Notes under the pieces: model-generated
What the model was told of the DNA's origin: nothing
Database searches by the model: none
Seen by the model: the letters and a program-made list of their open reading frames with translations, nothing else
DNA from: a virus
Taxonomy: Duplodnaviria > Heunggongvirae > Uroviricota > Caudoviricetes
Reading direction: 5' to 3' (one strand)
Virus record (IMG/VR): IMGVR_UViG_2585427765_000009
Length of the DNA stretch: 23,882 nucleotides
In this document: one piece after another, positions 1 through 22,278 of the stretch
How positions within the stretch are numbered: position 1 is the first letter of the stretch
How the letters are laid out: the number at the start of each line of letters is the position of its first letter
Program-made: the position numbers and the translations under genes

Positions 1-766
1 CCAGCTCCACTTCTGTCCGGTTTTTCCAGCTCTTACGGTGTATTACCTCCGCTTTGTAAAGGCCATTGATGCTCTCCGCCATCGCGTTGTCATACGAGTC
101 ACCAGTACTTCCTGTTGATGCCAGTAATCCGGCTTCCTTAAGCCGCTGTGTGTAGGCCAGCGATACATACTGAGAACCTTTATCACTGTGATGGACTGTG
201 CCGGACGGTTGACGGGCCCATAACGCCTGCTCCAGAGCATCCAGCACGAATGTCGTTTCCATAGACGATGAGACCCGCCACCCCACGATGTATCCGGCAA
301 ACACATCAATGATGAACGCCACATAGACGAAGCCCCGCCATGTGCTGACGTAAGTAAAATCAGCCACCCACAGCTGGTCAGGTCGTTCTGCCACGAACTG
401 ACGGTTTACGCGGTCGCCTGCGGCAACGGCTTTCCGGCTGATGGTCGTACGGACCTTTTTACCCCGGAGAACACCGGCAAGTCCCATAACCGCCATGAGA
501 CGTGCCACAGTGCATCTGGCCACTCTGATACCTTCCCGTAACAACTGACGCCAGACTTTACGCACACCGTACACCTGATGATTTTCATCGTATACGCGCT
601 GTATCTCTTTCTTCAGCCAGTCATCGCGCTGCGCACGGGCACTGCGTTTATCCGGATGATGTCGCTGTTGCTGACAGTGGTAATACGTTGACGGGGCAAT
701 ATGCAGTTCGCTGCATAGCGGTCCGACCCCGTACTGCTCACGCAGCTTATCCAGCAGTGGCATCAT
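1..766 (-). CDS. IS3-family transposase orfB (DDE catalytic domain), 3' end beyond window
   Basis: My translation from ATG at 766: MMPLLDKL...[31 protein letters not shown]...[11 protein letters not shown]; no stop before the window edge, so absent from the ORF track. Confidence 0.8.
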
Positions 767-1089
767 TTTTTCCAGAGGCGGTCGAACTCCGCCTTCGCAA
801 AATAAGCGGAAGCCTGGCGAAGGATATCGTTACTGCGGCGCAGTTCACGATTTTCACGTTCCAGCTCTTTCAGACGCTGACGTTCAGCGGTGGTGAGCCC
901 GCCATCACCGCCTCCGGTATCCCGCTCATGCTGGCGTACCCAGACACGCAGAGTCTCCGGTGTACAGCCAATCTTTGGGGCAATGGAACAAATTGCCGCC
1001 CACTGTGAGTCATATTCGCCCTGACTTTCCAGAACCATACGAATCGCTCTCTGACGGACTTCGGGGGAAAAACGAGTATTTTTAGTCAT
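763..1089 (-). CDS. IS3-family transposase orfA (helix-turn-helix / leucine zipper)
   Basis: 108 aa [22 protein letters not shown]...; SD AAGAGG upstream; stop overlaps orfB start. Confidence 0.85.
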
Positions 1090-14358: not shown

Positions 14359-14823
14359 TTATCTGAGGCATTGCTCTCGAATGTATAGCTGTGCCCCTTC
14401 AAGTTGTTTTTGCATTATTATCAGTCGCGCTCTGAGGGTGAAATAATCCCGTTCAGCGGTGTCTGCCAGTCGGGGGGAGGCTGCATTATCCACGCCGGAG
14501 GCGGTGGTGGCTTCACGCACTGACTGACAGACTGCTTTGATGTGCAACCGACGACGACCAGCGGCAACATCATCACGCAGAGCATCATTTTCAGCTTTCG
14601 CATCAGCTAACTCCTTCGTGTATTTTGCATCGAGCGCAGCAACATCACGCTGACGCATCTGCATGTCAGTAATTGCCGCGTTCGCCAGCTTCAGTTCTCT
14701 GACATTTTTGTCGCGCTGGGCTTTGTAGGTAATGGCGTTATCACGGTAATGATTCAGCCCCAGACTAAGCGCACCACAGGCCGCCAGCAGGGCAATGATG
14801 ACCACGCACAGTACGCGGTTCAT
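14359..14823 (-). CDS. Rz: Rz i-spanin
   Basis: N-terminal TM helix then coiled-coil periplasmic domain; contains embedded Rz1. Confidence 0.85.
14421..14603 (-). CDS. Rz1: Rz1 o-spanin lipoprotein
   Basis: Embedded in another frame of Rz; lipobox VVGC; PPPPP proline-rich stretch. Confidence 0.8.
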
Positions 14824-14824
14824 T

Positions 14825-14923
14825 TCACCACCAGCGTATCTGACCGATGAAATAACCGGAGGCCATAATCACAAACACCAGCCAGATAAGAATGAACTTC
14901 CAGGTGGATAATTTTTCAGCCAT
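14825..14923 (-). CDS. Small single-TM membrane peptide (32 aa) translationally coupled to Rz
   Basis: [32 protein letters not shown]; SD GGGAGA; stop overlaps Rz start. Confidence 0.45.
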
Positions 14924-15002
14924 CACTCGAATCTCCCGAATCAGTTTGCTAAAATCAAACACACTTTCTCCTTTGACTTTTCCGGAGTCAGGAGTCAGGA
15001 AA

Positions 15003-15040
15003 CACAAAACCCCGCTTGGTGCCAACAAACGGGGTTTTTA
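15003..15040. terminator. Bidirectional hairpin between endolysin and Rz
   Basis: AAAACCCCG...CGGGGTTTT stem with T-rich flanks on both strands. Confidence 0.45.
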
Positions 15041-15128
15041 CTTTTATTCACTTACGTTTCGCCAGTTCGCAGGATTTCATGTTATCCGCCCGCGTGGCCA
15101 TGCCTTATTTTTCAGCAAAATATTCTGC

Positions 15129-15662
15129 TTATCTGTCGATACCCCAGCACGCCAGCGCGCTCTCCTGGTCACGACGGGATACCTGACCGTAGCAGTTGTT
15201 TGAACGAATACGGCAGTCTCTGCCACCGTCCTTAATCCACCAGCGAATCGCCTCACACGCTCCCCTGCGATCACCTGCATTAATTCGTTTATAAAACGTC
15301 GACGGGAAACACTTACTGGGACCAATGTTGTACGGACAGAATGACGCGATCCCCGCTTTCTGGGGTTCGCTCAATGGCACTTTGATGTTTTTCTCCACCC
15401 ATGCCAGCGCCTTATCACGCTCAATGGCGTTGACCTGGTCGCATTTTTCCTTCGACAGTTTCATACCGGGAAAAACGGGTTTTCCATCCACCATCGTGGC
15501 CCCCCGACAGATGGTCCAGATGCCGGAACCATCGCGGTATGCCGTTGTGTGGTTACCCTCTTTTTCGTCCAGAAACTGGTCAAGTATCTGAGGAGCAGAC
15601 GCGCCTGCAGCAATCAGCGCCAGAACAGCAGCTGACAGGGCGTATTTGATTTTTGCGCTCAT
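15129..15662 (-). CDS. R: SAR endolysin (T4-lysozyme family)
   Basis: Ala/Gly-rich N-terminal segment YALSAAVLALIAAGASA; E...D...T catalytic spacing in EGNHTTAYRDGSGIWTICRG, as in phage 21 R. Confidence 0.85.
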   Translation of the reverse strand: MSAKIKYALSAAVLALIAAGASAPQILDQFLDEKEGNHTTAYRDGSGIWTICRGATMVDGKPVFPGMKLSKEKCDQVNAIERDKALAWVEKNIKVPLSEPQKAGIASFCPYNIGPSKCFPSTFYKRINAGDRRGACEAIRWWIKDGGRDCRIRSNNCYGQVSRRDQESALACWGIDR

Positions 15663-15717: not shown

Positions 15718-16032
15718 CTAACAACCCGTAATCGAGTTATCAGAACTGTTAATTTTTATGGTATACCGCGCCTCTGAACAGGGGCGCGTTTCTGGCAACA
15801 GCTCGTCCCCTTCACATAACCCGGCAGCAACATCCAGGAAGACCTGTCTGATGCTCCTTCTGGCTGCTGACTCATAAAACTCCAGCGCGGCACCTTCAAC
15901 ACGGTCCAGCGAGATGTCCAGGGCAAAAATTTCACCGTCAAAGCGTTTTTTGTCCCGTAACGCTAAAGTTACCGTAACTTTATTCTCAAAATTGCGGATC
16001 CCTTTCACAATCAGTTCATATTTTTGAGTCAT
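15718..16032 (-). CDS. Hypothetical soluble protein inserted between holin and endolysin
   Basis: 104 aa; ATG 5 nt after holin stop with SD GGGGAGAG; no TM or signal peptide. Confidence 0.6.
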   Translation of the reverse strand: MTQKYELIVKGIRNFENKVTVTLALRDKKRFDGEIFALDISLDRVEGAALEFYESAARRSIRQVFLDVAAGLCEGDELLPETRPCSEARYTIKINSSDNSITGC

Positions 16033-16036
16033 TGAA

Positions 16037-16252
16037 TTACTCTCCCCGTGCAGCCTTACGCTTGTCTTCTTTAATCTTGAAATAAAGGTTTGTCAGGTAC
16101 GTCAGCAGGCCAAATACCAGGCTACCCAGCACACCTATTGCTGCCCACTGTGAGGGCGTGACTTTATCGAGCAGCTGTAAAAACCAGTAGCCAGCACTGC
16201 CTGCGGAGGTGCCGTAGGCAATGCCTGTTGAAATTTTGTCCATGGATTTCAT
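16037..16252 (-). CDS. S: Pinholin, phage 21 S-type, dual start
   Basis: [71 protein letters not shown]; SD GGAGGTG; the ORF-track extension to 16309 is rejected. Confidence 0.9.
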
Positions 16253-16351
16253 AGCCTCACCTCCGCACGGAACGGATGGCATAGTTATTATGTGTAGGCT
16301 TCCAGACACATCAATCAGAGCCTTAATTGATATATATGCTGGAGACGATGC

Positions 16352-17537: not shown

Positions 17538-18011
17538 ACAGCGAATCAGATCAAATAAAACGCACATTTGTTAACATTTACACAAAGTCTGCGTGGGATA
17601 TTCTGAAAGAATATCCATAATGTAGAGAGAATCTATTGAAGTGCATGGTGCCGGGTGCCTCCCGGTGAATTCAGTACCAGCACCTGAATCCGCGATTATC
17701 CCATATACCTACTGGCTGATTGCCCCTCCGCACAGGGGGATTCACCATGCCAGTTTCTTTTAACAAACTCCCCGCAAACCAGACAACAGTCAACCGCCTG
17801 AATTGTGAAGTATTTAAAAATTTCTCCCGCTAACTGATACCCGGCTAACAGTCTGGCGTTTTCTTTTTCAGCAACGGGAAAGCAACAACCACCACACCCG
17901 CCACCAGCACACCGTCAGCCAGCACTGACATTATCCGGCTGCTGCAATGCCATTCACAAAAACAGTAAGCAATCACTTTTTACCGTAACAGGTGATAATC
18001 CAGATATGTAT

Positions 18012-18475: not shown

Positions 18476-18552
18476 TGGCGCGCTGTACTGGATTCGAACT
18501 AGTGACCGATTGCTTAGAAGGCAATTGCTCTGTCCGGCTGAGCTAACAACGC
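18476..18552 (-). tRNA. tRNA-Arg, anticodon UCU
   Basis: 77 nt cloverleaf folded by hand: acceptor GCGTTGT/ACAGCGC, D-stem GCTC/GAGC, anticodon stem ATTGC/GCAAT, loop CTTCTAA, T-loop TTCGAAT, CCA encoded. Confidence 0.8.
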
Positions 18553-18652
18553 TGAATACCGATAATGGACCGCCATCGGGGACCCGCCCCCGCACCAACA
18601 ACCCTGTTATCGCGTCGTCTGCTCTTCCTGATAAGCTAATGGCGGTTTGTGA

Positions 18653-18728
18653 TGGTGGCCCTTGCTGGATTTGAACCAGCGACCTGGCGATTATGAGTCG
18701 CTCGCTCTCACCACTGAGCTAAAGGGCC
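18653..18728 (-). tRNA. tRNA-Ile2, anticodon CAU (lysidine type; software may call it tRNA-Met)
   Basis: 76 nt; near-identical to E. coli ileX as recalled; acceptor GGCCCTT/AAGGGCC, anticodon loop CTCATAA, T-arm GCTGG-TTCAAAT-CCAGC. Confidence 0.8.
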
Positions 18729-21864: not shown

Positions 21865-22020
21865 TTACTCCTCAGGTTCGTAAGCTGTGAAGACAGCGAC
21901 CTCCGTCTGGCCGGTTCGGATTCGTACCTCGCAGAGGTCTTTCCTCGTTACCAGTGCCGTCACTATGACGGTTAAACAGATGACGATCAGGGCGATTAAC
22001 ATCGCCTTTTGCTGCTTCAT
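21865..22020 (-). CDS. hok: Hok/Gef-family type I toxin (HokD/RelF-like)
   Basis: MKQQKAMLIALIVICLTVIVTALVTRKDLCEVRIRTGQTEVAVFTAYEPEE, near-identical to Gef/HokC as recalled; SD AAGGAGAAG; ORF-track start at 22077 is an in-frame upstream ATG. Confidence 0.9.
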   Translation of the reverse strand: MKQQKAMLIALIVICLTVIVTALVTRKDLCEVRIRTGQTEVAVFTAYEPEE

Positions 22021-22278
22021 AGCCTGCTTCTCCTTGCCTTTCGGCACGTAAGAGGCTAACCTAGATTTGCCGTTCATAGATTGAGCCTCAGATTAATGTT
22101 AAACGTCTTGCAGGACGCGTAATGTTAACTGGGGCTTTTCTCTATCTGCCTTTGGTGTTCATGCCCGAGGCAGATAGCCTCAAGCACCCGCAGTCATTCT
22201 ACTTAACTAAGATTTCCCCGCAAACCGTTTTTGTCCAGCACAATAAATATCCAACTAAACCAATGGAGTTCGCTGTAT

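Follow-up and report, generated by a model that had tools for sequence, protein, structure and literature searches.

Genomic setting of the small ORF

The 23,882-nt stretch of DNA analysed here (the window) represents a lambdoid prophage of E. coli, and its lysis cassette is read from the minus strand. A Q-type antiterminator gene lies upstream of the lysis operon in the same prophage, and an S21-type holin (PF04971) is already encoded in the window. The segment of interest is the interval between the endolysin and Rz genes, which is arranged as follows; the term cassette is used below for the unit made up of a hairpin, a short leader and the small ORF.

15129..15662, minus strand: endolysin R, lysozyme family, 177 aa (PF00959, E = 5e-24), the upstream neighbour of the cassette, annotated as rrrQ/lysozyme in the source genome
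15039..15128, minus strand: R-flank spacer, directly after the R stop and outside the cassette, about 70% conserved in two relatives
14825..14962, minus strand (read 14962..14825): small ORF of 45 aa plus stop, with a GTG start (phrog_6632, RefSeq WP_000459345.1)
14359..14823, minus strand: Rz (i-spanin), the downstream neighbour (PF03245, E = 1e-52)
14421-14603: Rz1 (o-spanin), embedded in Rz (PF06085, E = 5e-20)

The two relatives that share the R-flank spacer at about 70% are Salmonella phage FSL SP-016 and the ant-type junction of E. coli Sakai, and this conservation runs up to 'gtgaataaa', just 5' of the hairpin. Rfam searches of positions 14700-15300 (E <= 5) and of the whole window (gathering scores) assigned no family to the R-Rz spacer, the sole matches of the spacer search being weak terminator-like resemblances to leader families.

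A conserved small membrane protein with two candidate starts

An earlier note on this DNA had described a small membrane peptide coupled to Rz, and a hydrophobic ORF of this kind, with an ATG at 14923, is indeed present on the minus strand directly before Rz. The size of 32 aa that it was given fits a predicted inner isoform beginning at an invariant methionine (Met14), but the conserved frame starts 13 codons earlier, at GTG 14962. The full 45-aa product matches phrog_6632, a group of unknown function, over 45/45 positions with E = 1.2e-29, as against E = 5.5e-20 for the 32-aa core alone, and it is the 45-aa form that RefSeq annotates in relatives. Each start has its own translation signal.

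14968..14973, minus strand: SD1, AAGGAG, with 5-nt spacing to GTG 14962 (read from the sequence)
14921..14937, minus strand: internal start, comprising SD2 (GGGAG, 14937-14933), a 9-nt spacer and the ATG of Met14 (14923-14921), opening the 32-aa isoform

SD1 is stronger than the Shine-Dalgarno (SD) sequence of the internal ATG. An SD-like word precedes the first start in 34/38 diverse relatives. All 38 relatives have a methionine at the position homologous to Met14, with an SD-like word 4-15 nt upstream in 34-35 of them. The GGGAG(A) at 14937-14932, 8-9 nt upstream of ATG 14923, had been correctly read as an SD in the earlier note, and its equivalents elsewhere are spelled by varied codon pairs (CGG/AGG GAG, AAG GAG, GAG GTG). 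Furthermore, two independent deletions (loci L018 and L123) have kept the Met14 core only, placing it directly after the stop codon of gpV. From these signals we infer that both starts are used, yielding 45-aa and 32-aa isoforms. At the other end of the gene, the stop codon (TGA, 14827-14825) is separated by a single base (14824) from the ATG of Rz at 14823. The overlap with the Rz start previously reported for this junction is thus off by one base (TGA-A-ATG), and the same 1-nt spacing is found in every R-Rz copy.

The AlphaFold2 model of the protein (pLDDT 85) consists of an amphipathic N-terminal helix (residues 4-17) followed by a C-terminal transmembrane helix (20-44). The latter is hydrophobic, the positive charges fall within residues 1-22 and the C-terminus reads Q-I-R-W-W. 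No family was found for the 45-aa protein in Pfam, NCBIfam or PADLOC (E <= 0.01-1); this includes the holin families and, in the same three collections, the known type I toxin families (Hok, Ldr, Ibs, TisB, ShoB, Zor, Fst). BLASTP produced no alignment with ECs_5741, the pre-Rz membrane ORF of Sakai, no paper was retrieved by full-text searching with either the peptide sequence or the RefSeq accession, and phrase searches on the R-Rz junction returned nothing relevant. Relatives are nonetheless numerous by sequence: they fall into 35 database clusters, and into 41 clusters at 50% identity among 1.8 billion proteins, and they occur in genomes of Escherichia, Salmonella, Citrobacter, Edwardsiella, Yersinia, Pantoea, Brenneria, Sodalis and Serratia, as well as in one Azoarcus MAG and in Pseudomonas phages.

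Its very small size and its lack of annotation in most phage records would agree with a chance reading frame lying over a conserved intergenic RNA element from which no protein is made. We regard that reading as close to negligible in probability. Over the membrane-spanning part (codons 15-42) dS is saturated while dN stays at 0.25-0.55, the Trp, Lys and Met positions are invariant across genera, a start codon (GTG, TTG or ATG) is kept behind an SD in 37/38 relatives, and the frame is intact in about 170 loci. On this comparative evidence the small ORF is a genuine, conserved protein-coding gene with conserved start signals. What the peptide does at the membrane can be guessed at: it might perturb the membrane or control lysis timing.

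Conserved hairpins at the cassette boundary and in the leader

The region between the R-flank spacer and SD1 contains two stem-loops and a small duplication.

15006..15038, both strands: hairpin 1, a bidirectional intrinsic-terminator-like stem-loop at the 5' boundary of the cassette (AAAACCCCG...CGGGGTTTT)
14986..14999, minus strand: strain-specific 7-bp tandem duplication (CCTGACT twice), seen as a gap in the leader alignment
14974..14990, minus strand: hairpin 2, TGAC...GTCA, directly 5' of SD1, predicted by folding

The stem of hairpin 1, as delimited by the terminator scan, has 13 pairs, 6 of them GC. An A-rich run (15039-15048) flanks it on the 5' side, so that T-tracts follow the stem on both strands: TTTTTACTTTT at 15035-15045 on the plus strand and the T-rich tail TTTTGTGTTT at 14996-15005 on the minus strand. 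Predicted folding is stable in both directions, with -18.9 kcal/mol (z = -3.15) on the lysis strand and -15.8 kcal/mol (z = -2.98) on the opposite one. The terminator-pattern scan taken alone does not exceed shuffled sequence (4 found vs 3.2 expected in 3.5 kb), and the case for the hairpin therefore rests on its conservation. In an alignment of 29 diverse relatives, 92.9% of the cells in hairpins 1 and 2 are paired, compared with 37-56% when the partner column is slid, and 12 of the 18 pairs have changed on both sides; none of 500 shuffles reached the observed values. Hairpin 1 accounts for 9 of its 13 pairs changed on both sides, with 94% of cells paired over the same 29 relatives, and hairpin 2 for 3 of 5 aligned pairs. 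Every full-length relative examined has hairpin 1 with the exception of locus L187, and the A-rich run on its 5' side is retained in unrelated upstream contexts. The GC-rich hairpin with T-tracts on both strands that the earlier note had placed some 80 nt upstream of the small ORF (15038..15006, in fact 83 nt from the ATG of Met14) is accordingly upheld by covariation.

Judged by this pattern of conservation, hairpin 1 is a real bidirectional terminator-like element, and both hairpins are conserved with covariation. Transcription would presumably terminate at hairpin 1 in either direction. Within hairpin 1, G-U wobble pairs that work on the lysis strand only outnumber those that work on the other strand only by approximately 20 to 6, so that the structure serves the sense strand no less than the opposite one.

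Only about 44 nt of leader remain after the terminator, and these carry hairpin 2. Other leader types have equivalents of this second helix with different sequences (CCTTG/CAAGG, CGTTA/TAACG, CCATG/CATGG, GGCAG/CTGCC), which always abut or cover the SD or the start codon. As for the tandem duplication, a 100% match over 361 nt is found in the source genome only, the other full-length E. coli hits being 354 nt long and at most 98.1% identical.

A portable unit in phage late operons

The distribution of the cassette was examined in 172 loci, a sample biased towards E. coli prophages. Homology among them always starts at the A-tract of hairpin 1 and always ends at the stop codon of the small ORF. 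Endolysin-Rz junctions account for 134/172 loci, with three unrelated kinds of endolysin upstream (R21-type lysozyme, a GH108 enzyme or an unclassified 138-aa endolysin) and Rz proteins of either the PF03245 or the DUF2514 family downstream. In another 28/172 loci the cassette follows the baseplate gene V (gpV), and elsewhere it is found after DUF2612, S74 tail fibre or LPD38 protein genes, between genes for a T7 gp14-like protein and an SLT protein, or between lambda K and I. The gene downstream varies, and is sometimes on the opposite strand or absent. Tandem arrangements also occur: one locus (L193) has three tandem copies, in another (L191) a repeated unit sits between ParE and YafQ genes, and a third (L190) adjoins PrlF/YhaV.

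The endolysin-Rz junction had been named in the earlier note as a hotspot of insertion in other lambdoid phages, and comparison among prophages bears this out. In Qin of E. coli K-12, R overlaps Rz and nothing lies between them. The R-Rz junctions of Sp15 and Sp9 in Sakai have the cassette absent or replaced by an antirepressor gene (ant) and a different 48-aa membrane ORF, and locus L157 carries both small ORFs in tandem. The cassette occupies the R-Rz junction in 871/5426 complete E. coli genomes, or about one in six, and is present in H-19B and in many Stx1a, Stx2a and Stx2c phages. By the constancy of its ends, the assembly of hairpin, leader and ORF is one portable unit of about 230 bp, inserted here at the endolysin-Rz junction.

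This portability bears directly on the role first suggested for the hairpin, namely that it sets Rz/Rz1 expression apart from that of holin and endolysin, with the peptide acting as a leader coupled to Rz. The position of the hairpin between R and Rz, the start of Rz 1 nt after the stop codon and the predominance of endolysin-Rz junctions among sampled copies all lend themselves to such a reading. However, the bias of the sample towards E. coli prophages means that the 78% found at these junctions overstates any link to lysis, and the same unit is also found in operons for baseplate, tail-fibre and virion proteins, as well as next to toxin-antitoxin genes, so that the hairpin belongs to the small ORF and not to Rz. 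Moreover, related lysis cassettes function with R overlapping Rz. It is well established in lambda that Q-modified polymerase overrides such terminators; given the Q gene upstream, it should also override hairpin 1, which is a further argument against attenuation. Because hairpin, leader and ORF travel together across contexts, the hairpin is not a spanin-specific attenuator, and the proposal that it tunes the spanins within the lysis operon now appears very improbable.

A second sense-strand reading takes its cue from the IsrK-orf45-anrP region of the Salmonella prophage Gifsy-1, which comprises a terminator, a helix sequestering the ribosome-binding site and a 45-codon ORF with two in-frame starts, the stop codon of orf45 abutting the next gene and leading to translational coupling (PMC4825925). 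The cassette has the same order of elements: a terminator, a helix adjoining the SD, a two-start ORF of 45 codons and a stop codon next to the following gene. Transcription from upstream would accordingly stop for the most part at hairpin 1, read-through transcripts would be silenced by hairpin 2, and the chief purpose of translating the ORF would be to turn on the downstream gene (Rz) by translational coupling. The covariation of hairpin 2 and its constant contact with SD or start codon agree with a switch of this type, as does the fixed TGA-A-ATG spacing at R-Rz junctions. Nevertheless, orf45 is reported to be conserved in nucleotides only (PMC4825925), whereas the cassette protein is conserved in sequence and membrane-like while its downstream partner varies. 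The cassette also differs in having neither homology to the Gifsy-1 region nor an sRNA body or conserved promoter upstream of hairpin 1, and Rfam IsrK (RF01394) is found neither in the window nor in the R-ant spacer of Sakai. We consider a switch of this kind improbable, if less so than spanin attenuation.

Constraint on the first codons and a predicted antisense RNA

The beginning of the ORF evolves under a different regime from the remainder. Synonymous entropy is 0.32 bits in codons 3-12 vs 1.27 in codons 22-41 (Mann-Whitney p = 9e-5), and dS in the 5' codons is 0.13-0.46, compared with saturation downstream. Some codons do not change at all: Asp3 is always GAT, Ser5 AGC, Leu11 TTG and Arg12 CGA. 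Part of this constraint, at codons 9-10, is accounted for by SD2. The remainder includes a motif that is read on the opposite strand and from which two features are predicted.

14947..14955, plus strand: predicted extended -10 promoter (TGCTAAAAT), located within ORF codons 3-6 and based on conservation of TGnTAnnnT
14961..15045, plus strand: predicted cis-antisense RNA of about 80 nt, deduced from the promoter position and the terminator

The TGnTAnnnT motif is present at the homologous antisense position in 36/38 diverse relatives. The cassette has practically no second motif of this kind, and the one present points at hairpin 1 from a distance of 50 nt. The amino-acid sequence by itself would produce it with a probability of 0.05-0.20 per lineage, and it has been rebuilt with other codons in locus L192 (CTA TCA) and locus L017 (TTT ATC), and kept as GAT TTT AGC in a GC-rich Pseudomonas phage. 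As judged from the alignment, the first 40 nt of the ORF are shown to be under extra nucleotide-level constraint that spells both SD2 and the antisense -10. A few loci bear on whether motif and hairpin go together. L187 has neither TGnTAnnnT nor the A/T-flanked terminator, and the deletions in L018 and L123 removed everything from hairpin 1 through the antisense -10. L186, which speaks against the antisense reading, keeps the hairpin with only a shifted and weaker -10. The co-loss and the two co-deletions are, however, anecdotes only, and a crude Fisher test of co-occurrence failed because its free-energy threshold called a hairpin in 38/38 loci.

From a 5' end opposite the GTG codon, the predicted RNA would extend across SD1 and hairpin 2 as far as hairpin 1, with its T-tract, where it would terminate. 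It folds into a 5' stem-loop, an A-rich linker and the terminator (-27.6 kcal/mol, z = -3.2), and none of 200 shuffles was as stable. The suggestion in the earlier note that the hairpin ends an antisense transcript is consistent with the conserved extended -10 ahead of it, although the transcript itself is a prediction. We infer both the existence of this RNA and a repressive role for it. On the sense strand, neither the promoter scan nor inspection of the conserved leader by eye yielded a promoter between R and the small ORF. A promoter-like CTGACC-18-CATAAT on the plus strand at 14840-14869 was discarded as not conserved, Salmonella having GTC GCT GCT at that place, and the conserved extended -10 was preferred to it.

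Antisense-oriented small RNAs inside lambdoid late operons have been described in EHEC prophages, where they include AgvB, AsxR and other EcOnc RNAs (PMC4104026). The predicted RNA resembles these in being a short transcript (51-85 nt in their case) directed against a Q-dependent late operon, with a Rho-independent terminator and a recurrent insertion site. In contrast, the EcOnc RNAs occupy other positions (following Q/PR', within the I-J spacer or following Rz), have other sequences and no paired small ORF, and are known RNAs where that of the cassette is predicted only. From the Hfq-CRAC list of EcOnc RNAs in EHEC Sakai, EcOnc12 (Sp9, immediately following Rz), EcOnc22 (Sp15, I-J spacer) and EcOnc37 (Sp18) could be placed, none of them in a copy of the cassette. 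The Pas sRNAs (preprint), considered as candidates for the cassette RNA, were rejected since they are located upstream of the holin instead.

Reduced synonymous change near start codons has a general cause in selection for weak structure and efficient initiation. On these grounds the cassette could be a plain passenger, that is, a membrane-protein gene with a captured terminator acting in the sense direction only (as an insulator or the 3' end of an upstream unit), no antisense RNA, and first codons frozen by the needs of translation initiation, namely a pair of starts, the SD between them and a start region rich in A/U and poor in structure. The coding and portability evidence is equally compatible with such a gene. 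The excess of lysis-strand wobbles in hairpin 1 and its more stable sense fold favour it, and SD2 explains codons 9-10. In addition, the -35 region of the proposed antisense promoter is poor (2-4 of 6), and the -35/-10 promoter scan did not report it. Yet a general preference for A/U-rich or unstructured starts leaves the constant AGC of Ser5 (never AGT or TCN) unaccounted for, as it does the invariant rare pair TTG CGA at Leu11-Arg12, the reconstruction of TGnTAnnnT in two lineages and its persistence in a GC-rich phage. The A-rich run preserved in unrelated contexts is needed only for termination on the other strand, and an accidental terminator would not stay attached across so many contexts. 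A passenger gene is on balance unlikely, but it is a possibility to be taken seriously.

A tentative model

The reading we prefer, with a confidence just short of an even chance, is that of a late-operon cassette resembling a type I toxin-antitoxin pair, in which a membrane peptide with two isoforms is accompanied by a terminator acting in both directions and by an antisense RNA of about 80 nt encoded in cis. The cassette would encode a tail-anchored inner-membrane protein of the phrog_6632 group as a 45-aa (GTG 14962) and a 32-aa (Met14) form. In the lysis direction, hairpin 1 would stop ordinary read-through from upstream, so that the peptide and Rz/Rz1 would be made by Q-antiterminated late transcription only, Rz being probably translated by re-initiation 1 nt past the stop codon of the small ORF. 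In the opposite direction, the same hairpin would terminate the RNA started from the extended -10 in codons 3-6. This RNA would pair without mismatch to the start codon, to SD1 and to the leader, and would keep the long form untranslated in the lysogen, much as in a type I pair. Two observations sit uneasily with the model. A strong sense terminator should do harm in those tail operons that are not known to rely on antitermination, which implies that the terminator is leaky or the model incomplete. Classical type I toxin genes carry their own promoter and a structured 5' UTR; the peptide gene has a structured leader (hairpin 2), but no promoter was seen for it.

A broader proposal is rather doubtful, though it deserves consideration: that these cassettes form a new and widespread toxin-antitoxin-like family in phage late operons, defined by a tail-anchored membrane peptide in a long and a short form, an antisense promoter in codons 3-6 and a shared bidirectional terminator. 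In the lysogen the long form would be kept silent by the RNA; late (antiterminated) transcription would later swamp this RNA, leaving the peptide to act on the inner membrane and to influence lysis timing, phage release or exclusion.

The cassette is common, being carried by approximately one in six complete E. coli genomes and by Stx phages, and is yet mostly unannotated. Should the model hold, a small membrane protein, possibly in two isoforms, would join the set of proteins expressed by Stx phages at the time of lysis, and the cassette would offer a clear instance of a codon-embedded promoter and of a bidirectional terminator shared by an mRNA and its antisense RNA. It would likewise indicate that late operons can carry toxin-antitoxin-like units which lack their own promoter, explain the frozen 5' synonymous sites of a small gene, and provide a simple testable system in which a single 230-bp unit can be altered by point mutations that spare the protein. 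Should only the plain reading hold, the analysis still supplies a corrected annotation (45 aa, two starts) for a common hypothetical phage gene, and the hairpin is still shown not to be a spanin attenuator.

Relation to known systems

The literature on type I toxin-antitoxin systems, prophages and small RNAs provided analogues only. Dual-start holin/antiholin pairs, such as S105/S107 of lambda and S68/S71 of phage 21, share with the cassette two in-frame starts that yield a long and a short membrane protein, RNA structure at the upstream start and, given the frequency of the cassette in lysis cassettes, a similar setting. The starts of the cassette, however, are 13 codons apart, as opposed to 2-3 in those pairs, and, unlike holins, its protein has one C-terminal helix followed by only RWW, with no charged C-terminal tail, and many of its copies lie outside lysis cassettes.

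The cassette can also be compared with morons, extra genes found between conserved late genes (Juhala et al. 2000, quoted in PMC4104026). It too is extra DNA between genes that are otherwise adjacent or overlapping (R and Rz in Qin; gpV and the next baseplate gene), and it moves between unrelated phages. A classical moron has a promoter upstream and a terminator downstream, whereas the cassette has its terminator upstream and no sense promoter; its sole promoter-like signal points the opposite way, and the next gene follows 1 nt after the stop codon.

There is likewise a resemblance to type I toxin-antitoxin systems (hok/sok, ibs/sib, zorO/orzO, hokW-sokW). As in these, a small (<60-aa) membrane peptide with a single helix has its SD held in a hairpin, an antisense RNA is predicted over the ribosome-binding site and would end at a Rho-independent terminator, and the units occur in tandem arrays, next to toxin-antitoxin genes and in prophages. 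The differences are that the peptide gene rides late operons in the same orientation with no promoter of its own, that a single, shared terminator precedes the ORF, that there are two in-frame starts, and that the peptide has no sequence similarity to known toxin families. In one prophage type I pair, hokW-sokW, a contribution to lysis has been described (PMC8621323). A hok/sok copy is also present in the window.

Layout of the lysis region

The window, which aligns at 100% with the chromosome of E. coli E203449, is part of a lambdoid prophage. The small ORF, Shine-Dalgarno (SD) sequence and hairpin that the earlier note placed between the endolysin gene R and Rz are all present when the minus strand is read.

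Features of the late region, with the R-Rz gap in detail
Minus strand, first listed gene: Q-type antiterminator gene
18479-18728, minus: tRNA-Ile and tRNA-Arg, downstream of the Q antiterminator gene
17587-17779, minus: STnc100-like sRNA (Rfam STnc100, 112.9 bits), upstream of the holin gene
Minus: TolA-like genes, between the STnc100-like sRNA and the holin gene
16309..16037, minus: S21-type holin (PF04971)
16032..15718, minus: DUF1327 gene
15662..15129, minus: endolysin R, lysozyme family (PF00959)
R-Rz gap, 305 nt, minus: location of the cassette
15039-15128, minus: segment of ~90 nt after the R stop, containing …GGCGGATAACATGAAATCCTGCGAACTGGCGAAACGTAAGTGAATAAA
Minus: A-rich run, after the ~90-nt segment and 5' of hairpin 1
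15038..15006, minus reading: hairpin 1, stem-loop AAAACCCCGTTTG-TTGGCAC-CAAGCGGGGTTTT
Minus: T-rich tail, 3' of hairpin 1 and before the tandem duplication
14986-14999, minus: 7-bp tandem duplication (CCTGACT x2), in the leader 3' of hairpin 1 and 5' of the SD
Minus: hairpin 2, small TGAC...GTCA stem after the duplication and before AAGGAG
Minus: AAGGAG (SD1), 5-nt spacing, GTG 14962, upstream start of the 45-aa ORF
Minus: GGGAG (SD2), 9-nt spacing, ATG 14923 (Met14), 13 codons past the GTG
14827-14825, minus: stop TGA, then one spacer base and the Rz ATG at 14823
14823..14359, minus: Rz (PF03245)
14603..14421, minus: Rz1, embedded in Rz (PF06085)

The segment at 15039-15128, for which an Rfam search gave no match, is part of the R flank, since Salmonella phage FSL SP-016 and a Sakai junction of the antirepressor (ant) type both conserve it. 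The CCTGACT duplication is confined to the source strain; every other full-length match in E. coli is shorter by 7 nt. The duplication provides an additional TGAC arm, by which hairpin 2 could become longer. The STnc100 match belongs to the PasD/STnc100 class of prophage sRNAs, treated in a 2026 preprint. Elsewhere in the window, a Sok antitoxin RNA at 22015-22189 (minus, 110 bits) marks a hok/sok type I toxin-antitoxin locus, and an ALIL pseudoknot, the frameshift signal of the IS3 family, lies at 692-808 (minus, 120 bits).

The 45-aa ORF and its two probable starts

We regard it as nearly certain that the 45-aa ORF is a gene. Its product matches phrog_6632 (45 positions, unknown function) from end to end with E = 1e-29, and in sister genomes the 45-aa form is the RefSeq hypothetical protein WP_000459345.1; the protein family is thus already catalogued, as hypothetical, and searches of Pfam, NCBIfam and PADLOC found no family for it. 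Database searches give 35 clusters at 90% identity, and a search of 1.8 billion proteins gives 41 representatives at 50% identity; the family is real, though small. Relatives occur in genomes of Escherichia, Salmonella, Citrobacter, Trabulsiella, Edwardsiella, Yersinia, Izhakiella, Sodalis, Brenneria, Pantoea, Symbiopectobacterium and Serratia, in an Azoarcus MAG and in phages of Pseudomonas and Actinobacillus. Codons 15-42 are under strong purifying selection acting on the protein, because comparison of the E. coli, Salmonella and Pantoea types gives dN of 0.25-0.55 with dS beyond the range of the estimator. Trp21, Lys22, Phe23, Trp27 and the terminal R-W-W are near-invariant, and AlphaFold2, run on a shallow alignment, predicts helices at 4-17 and 20-44 (pLDDT 85). 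From the clustering of basic residues before residue 22 we infer a tail-anchored protein with its N-terminus inside and a nearly bare periplasmic side.

Of 38 diverse relatives, 37 have a start codon at the upstream position (23 GTG, 8 ATG, 6 TTG), and 34 an SD-like word before it; the 13 N-terminal residues are conserved as protein even in distant members that use other codons. Met14 is found in all 38, with an SD-like word 4-15 nt before it in 34-35; this second word is assembled from lineage-specific codon pairs (CGG or AGG + GAG, AAG + GAG, GAG + GTG). Two independent deletions, in the loci of Serratia (L018) and of a viral contig (L123) that follow the baseplate spike gene V, remove everything from the hairpin through codon 6 or 13 and retain the Met14 core directly after the stop of gpV, the V product. 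Because Met14 and its SD are conserved, and the Met14 core survives both deletions, the 32-aa product is probably made too, and the evidence leans towards use of both starts. The 32-aa ORF of the earlier note is accordingly a real frame with a conserved start, covering only the inner two-thirds of the 45-aa frame.

Conserved hairpins

Homology to the window begins at the A-tract and ends at the ORF stop codon, and every full-length relative but the GC-rich locus L187 repeats the same order: A-tract, hairpin 1, T-tract, hairpin 2 at the SD or start codon, start codon and ORF. A terminator scan scores hairpin 1 as terminator-like on the minus strand, and it folds at -18.9 and -15.8 kcal/mol on the two strands (z about -3). 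In an alignment of 29 sequences, 92.9% of the cells of the two helices are paired, whereas sliding the partners lowers this to 37-56%. Changes on both sides affect 12 of 18 pairs, and none of 500 column shuffles reaches the observed values. Compensatory changes in hairpin 1 take CCCCG/CGGGG to CTCCG/CGGAG in Edwardsiella and to CCCGG/CCGGG in locus L122, while the stem of hairpin 2 varies among CCTTG/CAAGG, CGTTA/TAACG and CCATG/CATGG, with TGAC/GTCA and GGCAG/CTGCC in two other leader types. It is highly probable that both hairpins are functional structures. Hairpin 1 is at least a sense-strand element, because its wobble pairs favour that strand by ~20 to 6. The A-rich run on its 5' side, maintained across unrelated upstream contexts, is required solely for termination on the plus (antisense) strand.

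A candidate antisense promoter within the codons

The first 40 nt of the ORF are under additional constraint. Among 29 representatives, mean synonymous codon entropy rises from 0.32 bits (codons 3-12) to 1.27 bits further on (codons 22-41; Mann-Whitney p = 9e-5), and pairwise dS, saturated further downstream, is 0.13-0.46 in codons 2-14. Asp3 GAT, Phe4 TTT and Ser5 AGC (out of six possible codons) are fixed throughout; Arg9 is only CGG or AGG and Glu10 only GAG, the two codons that constitute SD2, and Leu11 is only TTG and Arg12 only the rare CGA. The needs of translation can explain constraint around start codons in general, and might do so at the 5' end of this ORF as well. The same bases also admit a promoter reading: codons 3-6 on the opposite strand are TGCTAAAAT, an extended -10 promoter (TGnTATAAT). 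TGnTAnnnT stands at the homologous position in 36 of the 38 relatives and is nearly the sole such motif within the cassette, its internal variation being confined to hexamer position 4, among the less critical ones in sigma-70 promoters. The motif is kept despite amino-acid changes in Azoarcus (TTT ATC, giving TGATAAAAT) and in locus L194 (GAG TTT ATC, giving TGATAAACT), and with a different serine codon in locus L192 (CTA TCA, giving TGATAGGAT); in a Pseudomonas phage the codons remain GAT TTT AGC, GAT and TTT being seldom used in its GC-rich host. Were synonymous codons drawn uniformly for the given amino acids, 5-20% of recodings in each lineage would show the motif. L187 has neither the motif nor a terminator flanked by A/T, and locus L186 has the hairpin with the -10 only as a shifted TAAGAT. 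The -35 region is weak, and the promoter scan does not call the site.

The predicted plus-strand RNA, of ~80 nt, would start at ~14961-14963 opposite the GTG, run antisense to SD1 and hairpin 2, and terminate at hairpin 1 and its T-tract, at ~15039-15045. In its predicted fold, at -27.6 kcal/mol (z = -3.2), an A-rich linker joins a 5' stem-loop to the terminator. We hold the existence of this RNA to be a serious possibility that falls a little short of probable, and the proposal in the earlier note that the hairpin ends an antisense transcript may hold to that extent: the conserved extended -10 fits it, and the RNA itself is a prediction. No link to the cassette was found among published transcripts, the EcOnc RNAs that could be placed mapping elsewhere; in Sakai, which has the best Hfq-CRAC map, the R-Rz junctions examined (Sp9 and Sp15) hold a different insert. 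EcOnc22, a published Hfq-bound RNA of ~85 nt that is antisense to the late operon, lies in the hairpin-containing spacer of tail genes I and J in Sakai Sp15 (locus L188, 2192-2431) and is a second antisense-oriented small RNA at a late-operon junction, unrelated in sequence to the cassette.

Genomic contexts

In a biased sample of 172 retrieved loci, dominated by E. coli prophages, 134 place the unit between endolysin and Rz, beside an R21-type lysozyme, a GH108 enzyme or an unclassified 138-aa protein on one side and an Rz of PF03245 or DUF2514 type on the other. Another 28 follow gene V, as in Salmonella phage SEN34, phage Rac-SA53 and Pantoea and Serratia prophages, and single loci lie downstream of a DUF2612, S74 tail fibre or LPD38 protein, in a T7 gp14-like/SLT protein interval, or in the lambda K-I interval (a Pseudomonas phage and locus L195). 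Among more distant members, locus L193 carries three tandem small ORFs (1201-1787), each ending in IRWW, with a terminator-like hairpin in each of the two upstream regions read; loci of type I toxins typically multiply in tandem in this way. In locus L191 (GCA_900156195.1, 800-1900), ParE and YafQ toxin genes flank a direct repeat of ~700 bp, in which each copy has a good sigma-70 promoter (TTTACA-17-TATCAT), a short terminated RNA of ~90 nt, a spacer of ~170 nt, hairpin 1 and a family or variant ORF, and a further copy, in L190, adjoins PrlF/YhaV. The unit is very probably a portable cassette. Hairpin 1 belongs to the small ORF rather than to the lysis operon, and the spanin-specific attenuator suggested in the earlier note is not borne out: the hairpin-ORF unit is found also after gpV, in tail and virion modules and beside toxin-antitoxin genes.

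The R-Rz junction is, as that note said, an insertion hotspot: R overlaps Rz in K-12 Qin, and the Sakai Sp15 and Sp9 junctions hold an antirepressor and an unrelated 48-aa membrane ORF. Junctions of this ant type have a single-helix membrane ORF of 43-48 aa directly before Rz, with no detectable similarity to the 45-aa ORF, and locus L157 has both small ORFs in tandem in its R-Rz interval.

Other membrane ORFs preceding Rz
L179, 4749-4895: Sakai Sp15, ECs_5741
L183, 6827-6973: Sakai Sp9, ECs_5722
L157, 1638-1769

Small membrane ORFs seem to gather just upstream of Rz. In Salmonella phage FSL SP-016 (L004, 2386-2502), a further unannotated hydrophobic ORF of 38 aa, MTMSKRDVSALCFLMAAAVAISGNDGWGWLIFAGIIIL, lies upstream of the cassette and overlaps the endolysin gene at its end.

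A model for the cassette

Our best reading is a portable cassette of late operons, similar in behaviour to a type I toxin-antitoxin pair. The membrane peptide would be transcribed solely by read-through from the late promoter, and the promoter scan found no sense promoter for the small ORF. Classical type I toxins carry their own promoters. In the lysogen, the hairpin 1 terminator would stop sense transcripts that stray into the cassette, with SD1 and the start codon covered by the antisense RNA. Once the prophage is induced, polymerase modified by Q, whose gene is present in the prophage, would ignore the terminator, Q override of terminators being established lambda biology, and the peptide, mainly or also as the Met14 form, would be co-produced with Rz/Rz1. 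The small ORF, said in the earlier note to overlap the Rz start, ends short of it: the Rz ATG stands exactly one base after the stop in every R-Rz copy, and Rz probably re-initiates there, 1 nt past the stop. The conserved C-terminal codons TGG TGG TGA (W-W-stop, 14825-14835) resemble an SD, GGTGGTGA, which suggests a built-in translational coupling to the downstream gene, whichever that is. Tail operons are not known to use antitermination; a strong sense terminator within them should be costly, and the two deletion variants after gpV may reflect this cost. That the peptide acts as a toxin or lysis modulator we consider rather unlikely.

In the searchable literature, neither the architecture of the cassette nor its dual start nor the antisense promoter embedded in its codons was found described. 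Precedents are the antisense-oriented sRNAs inside late operons of this kind in EHEC prophages (PMC4104026) and hokW-sokW, a type I pair carried by a prophage, which promotes lysis and the release of phage (PMC8621323). IsrK-orf45-anrP of Gifsy-1 has no homology to the cassette, but its sense-strand layout, as described (PMC4825925), is almost identical.
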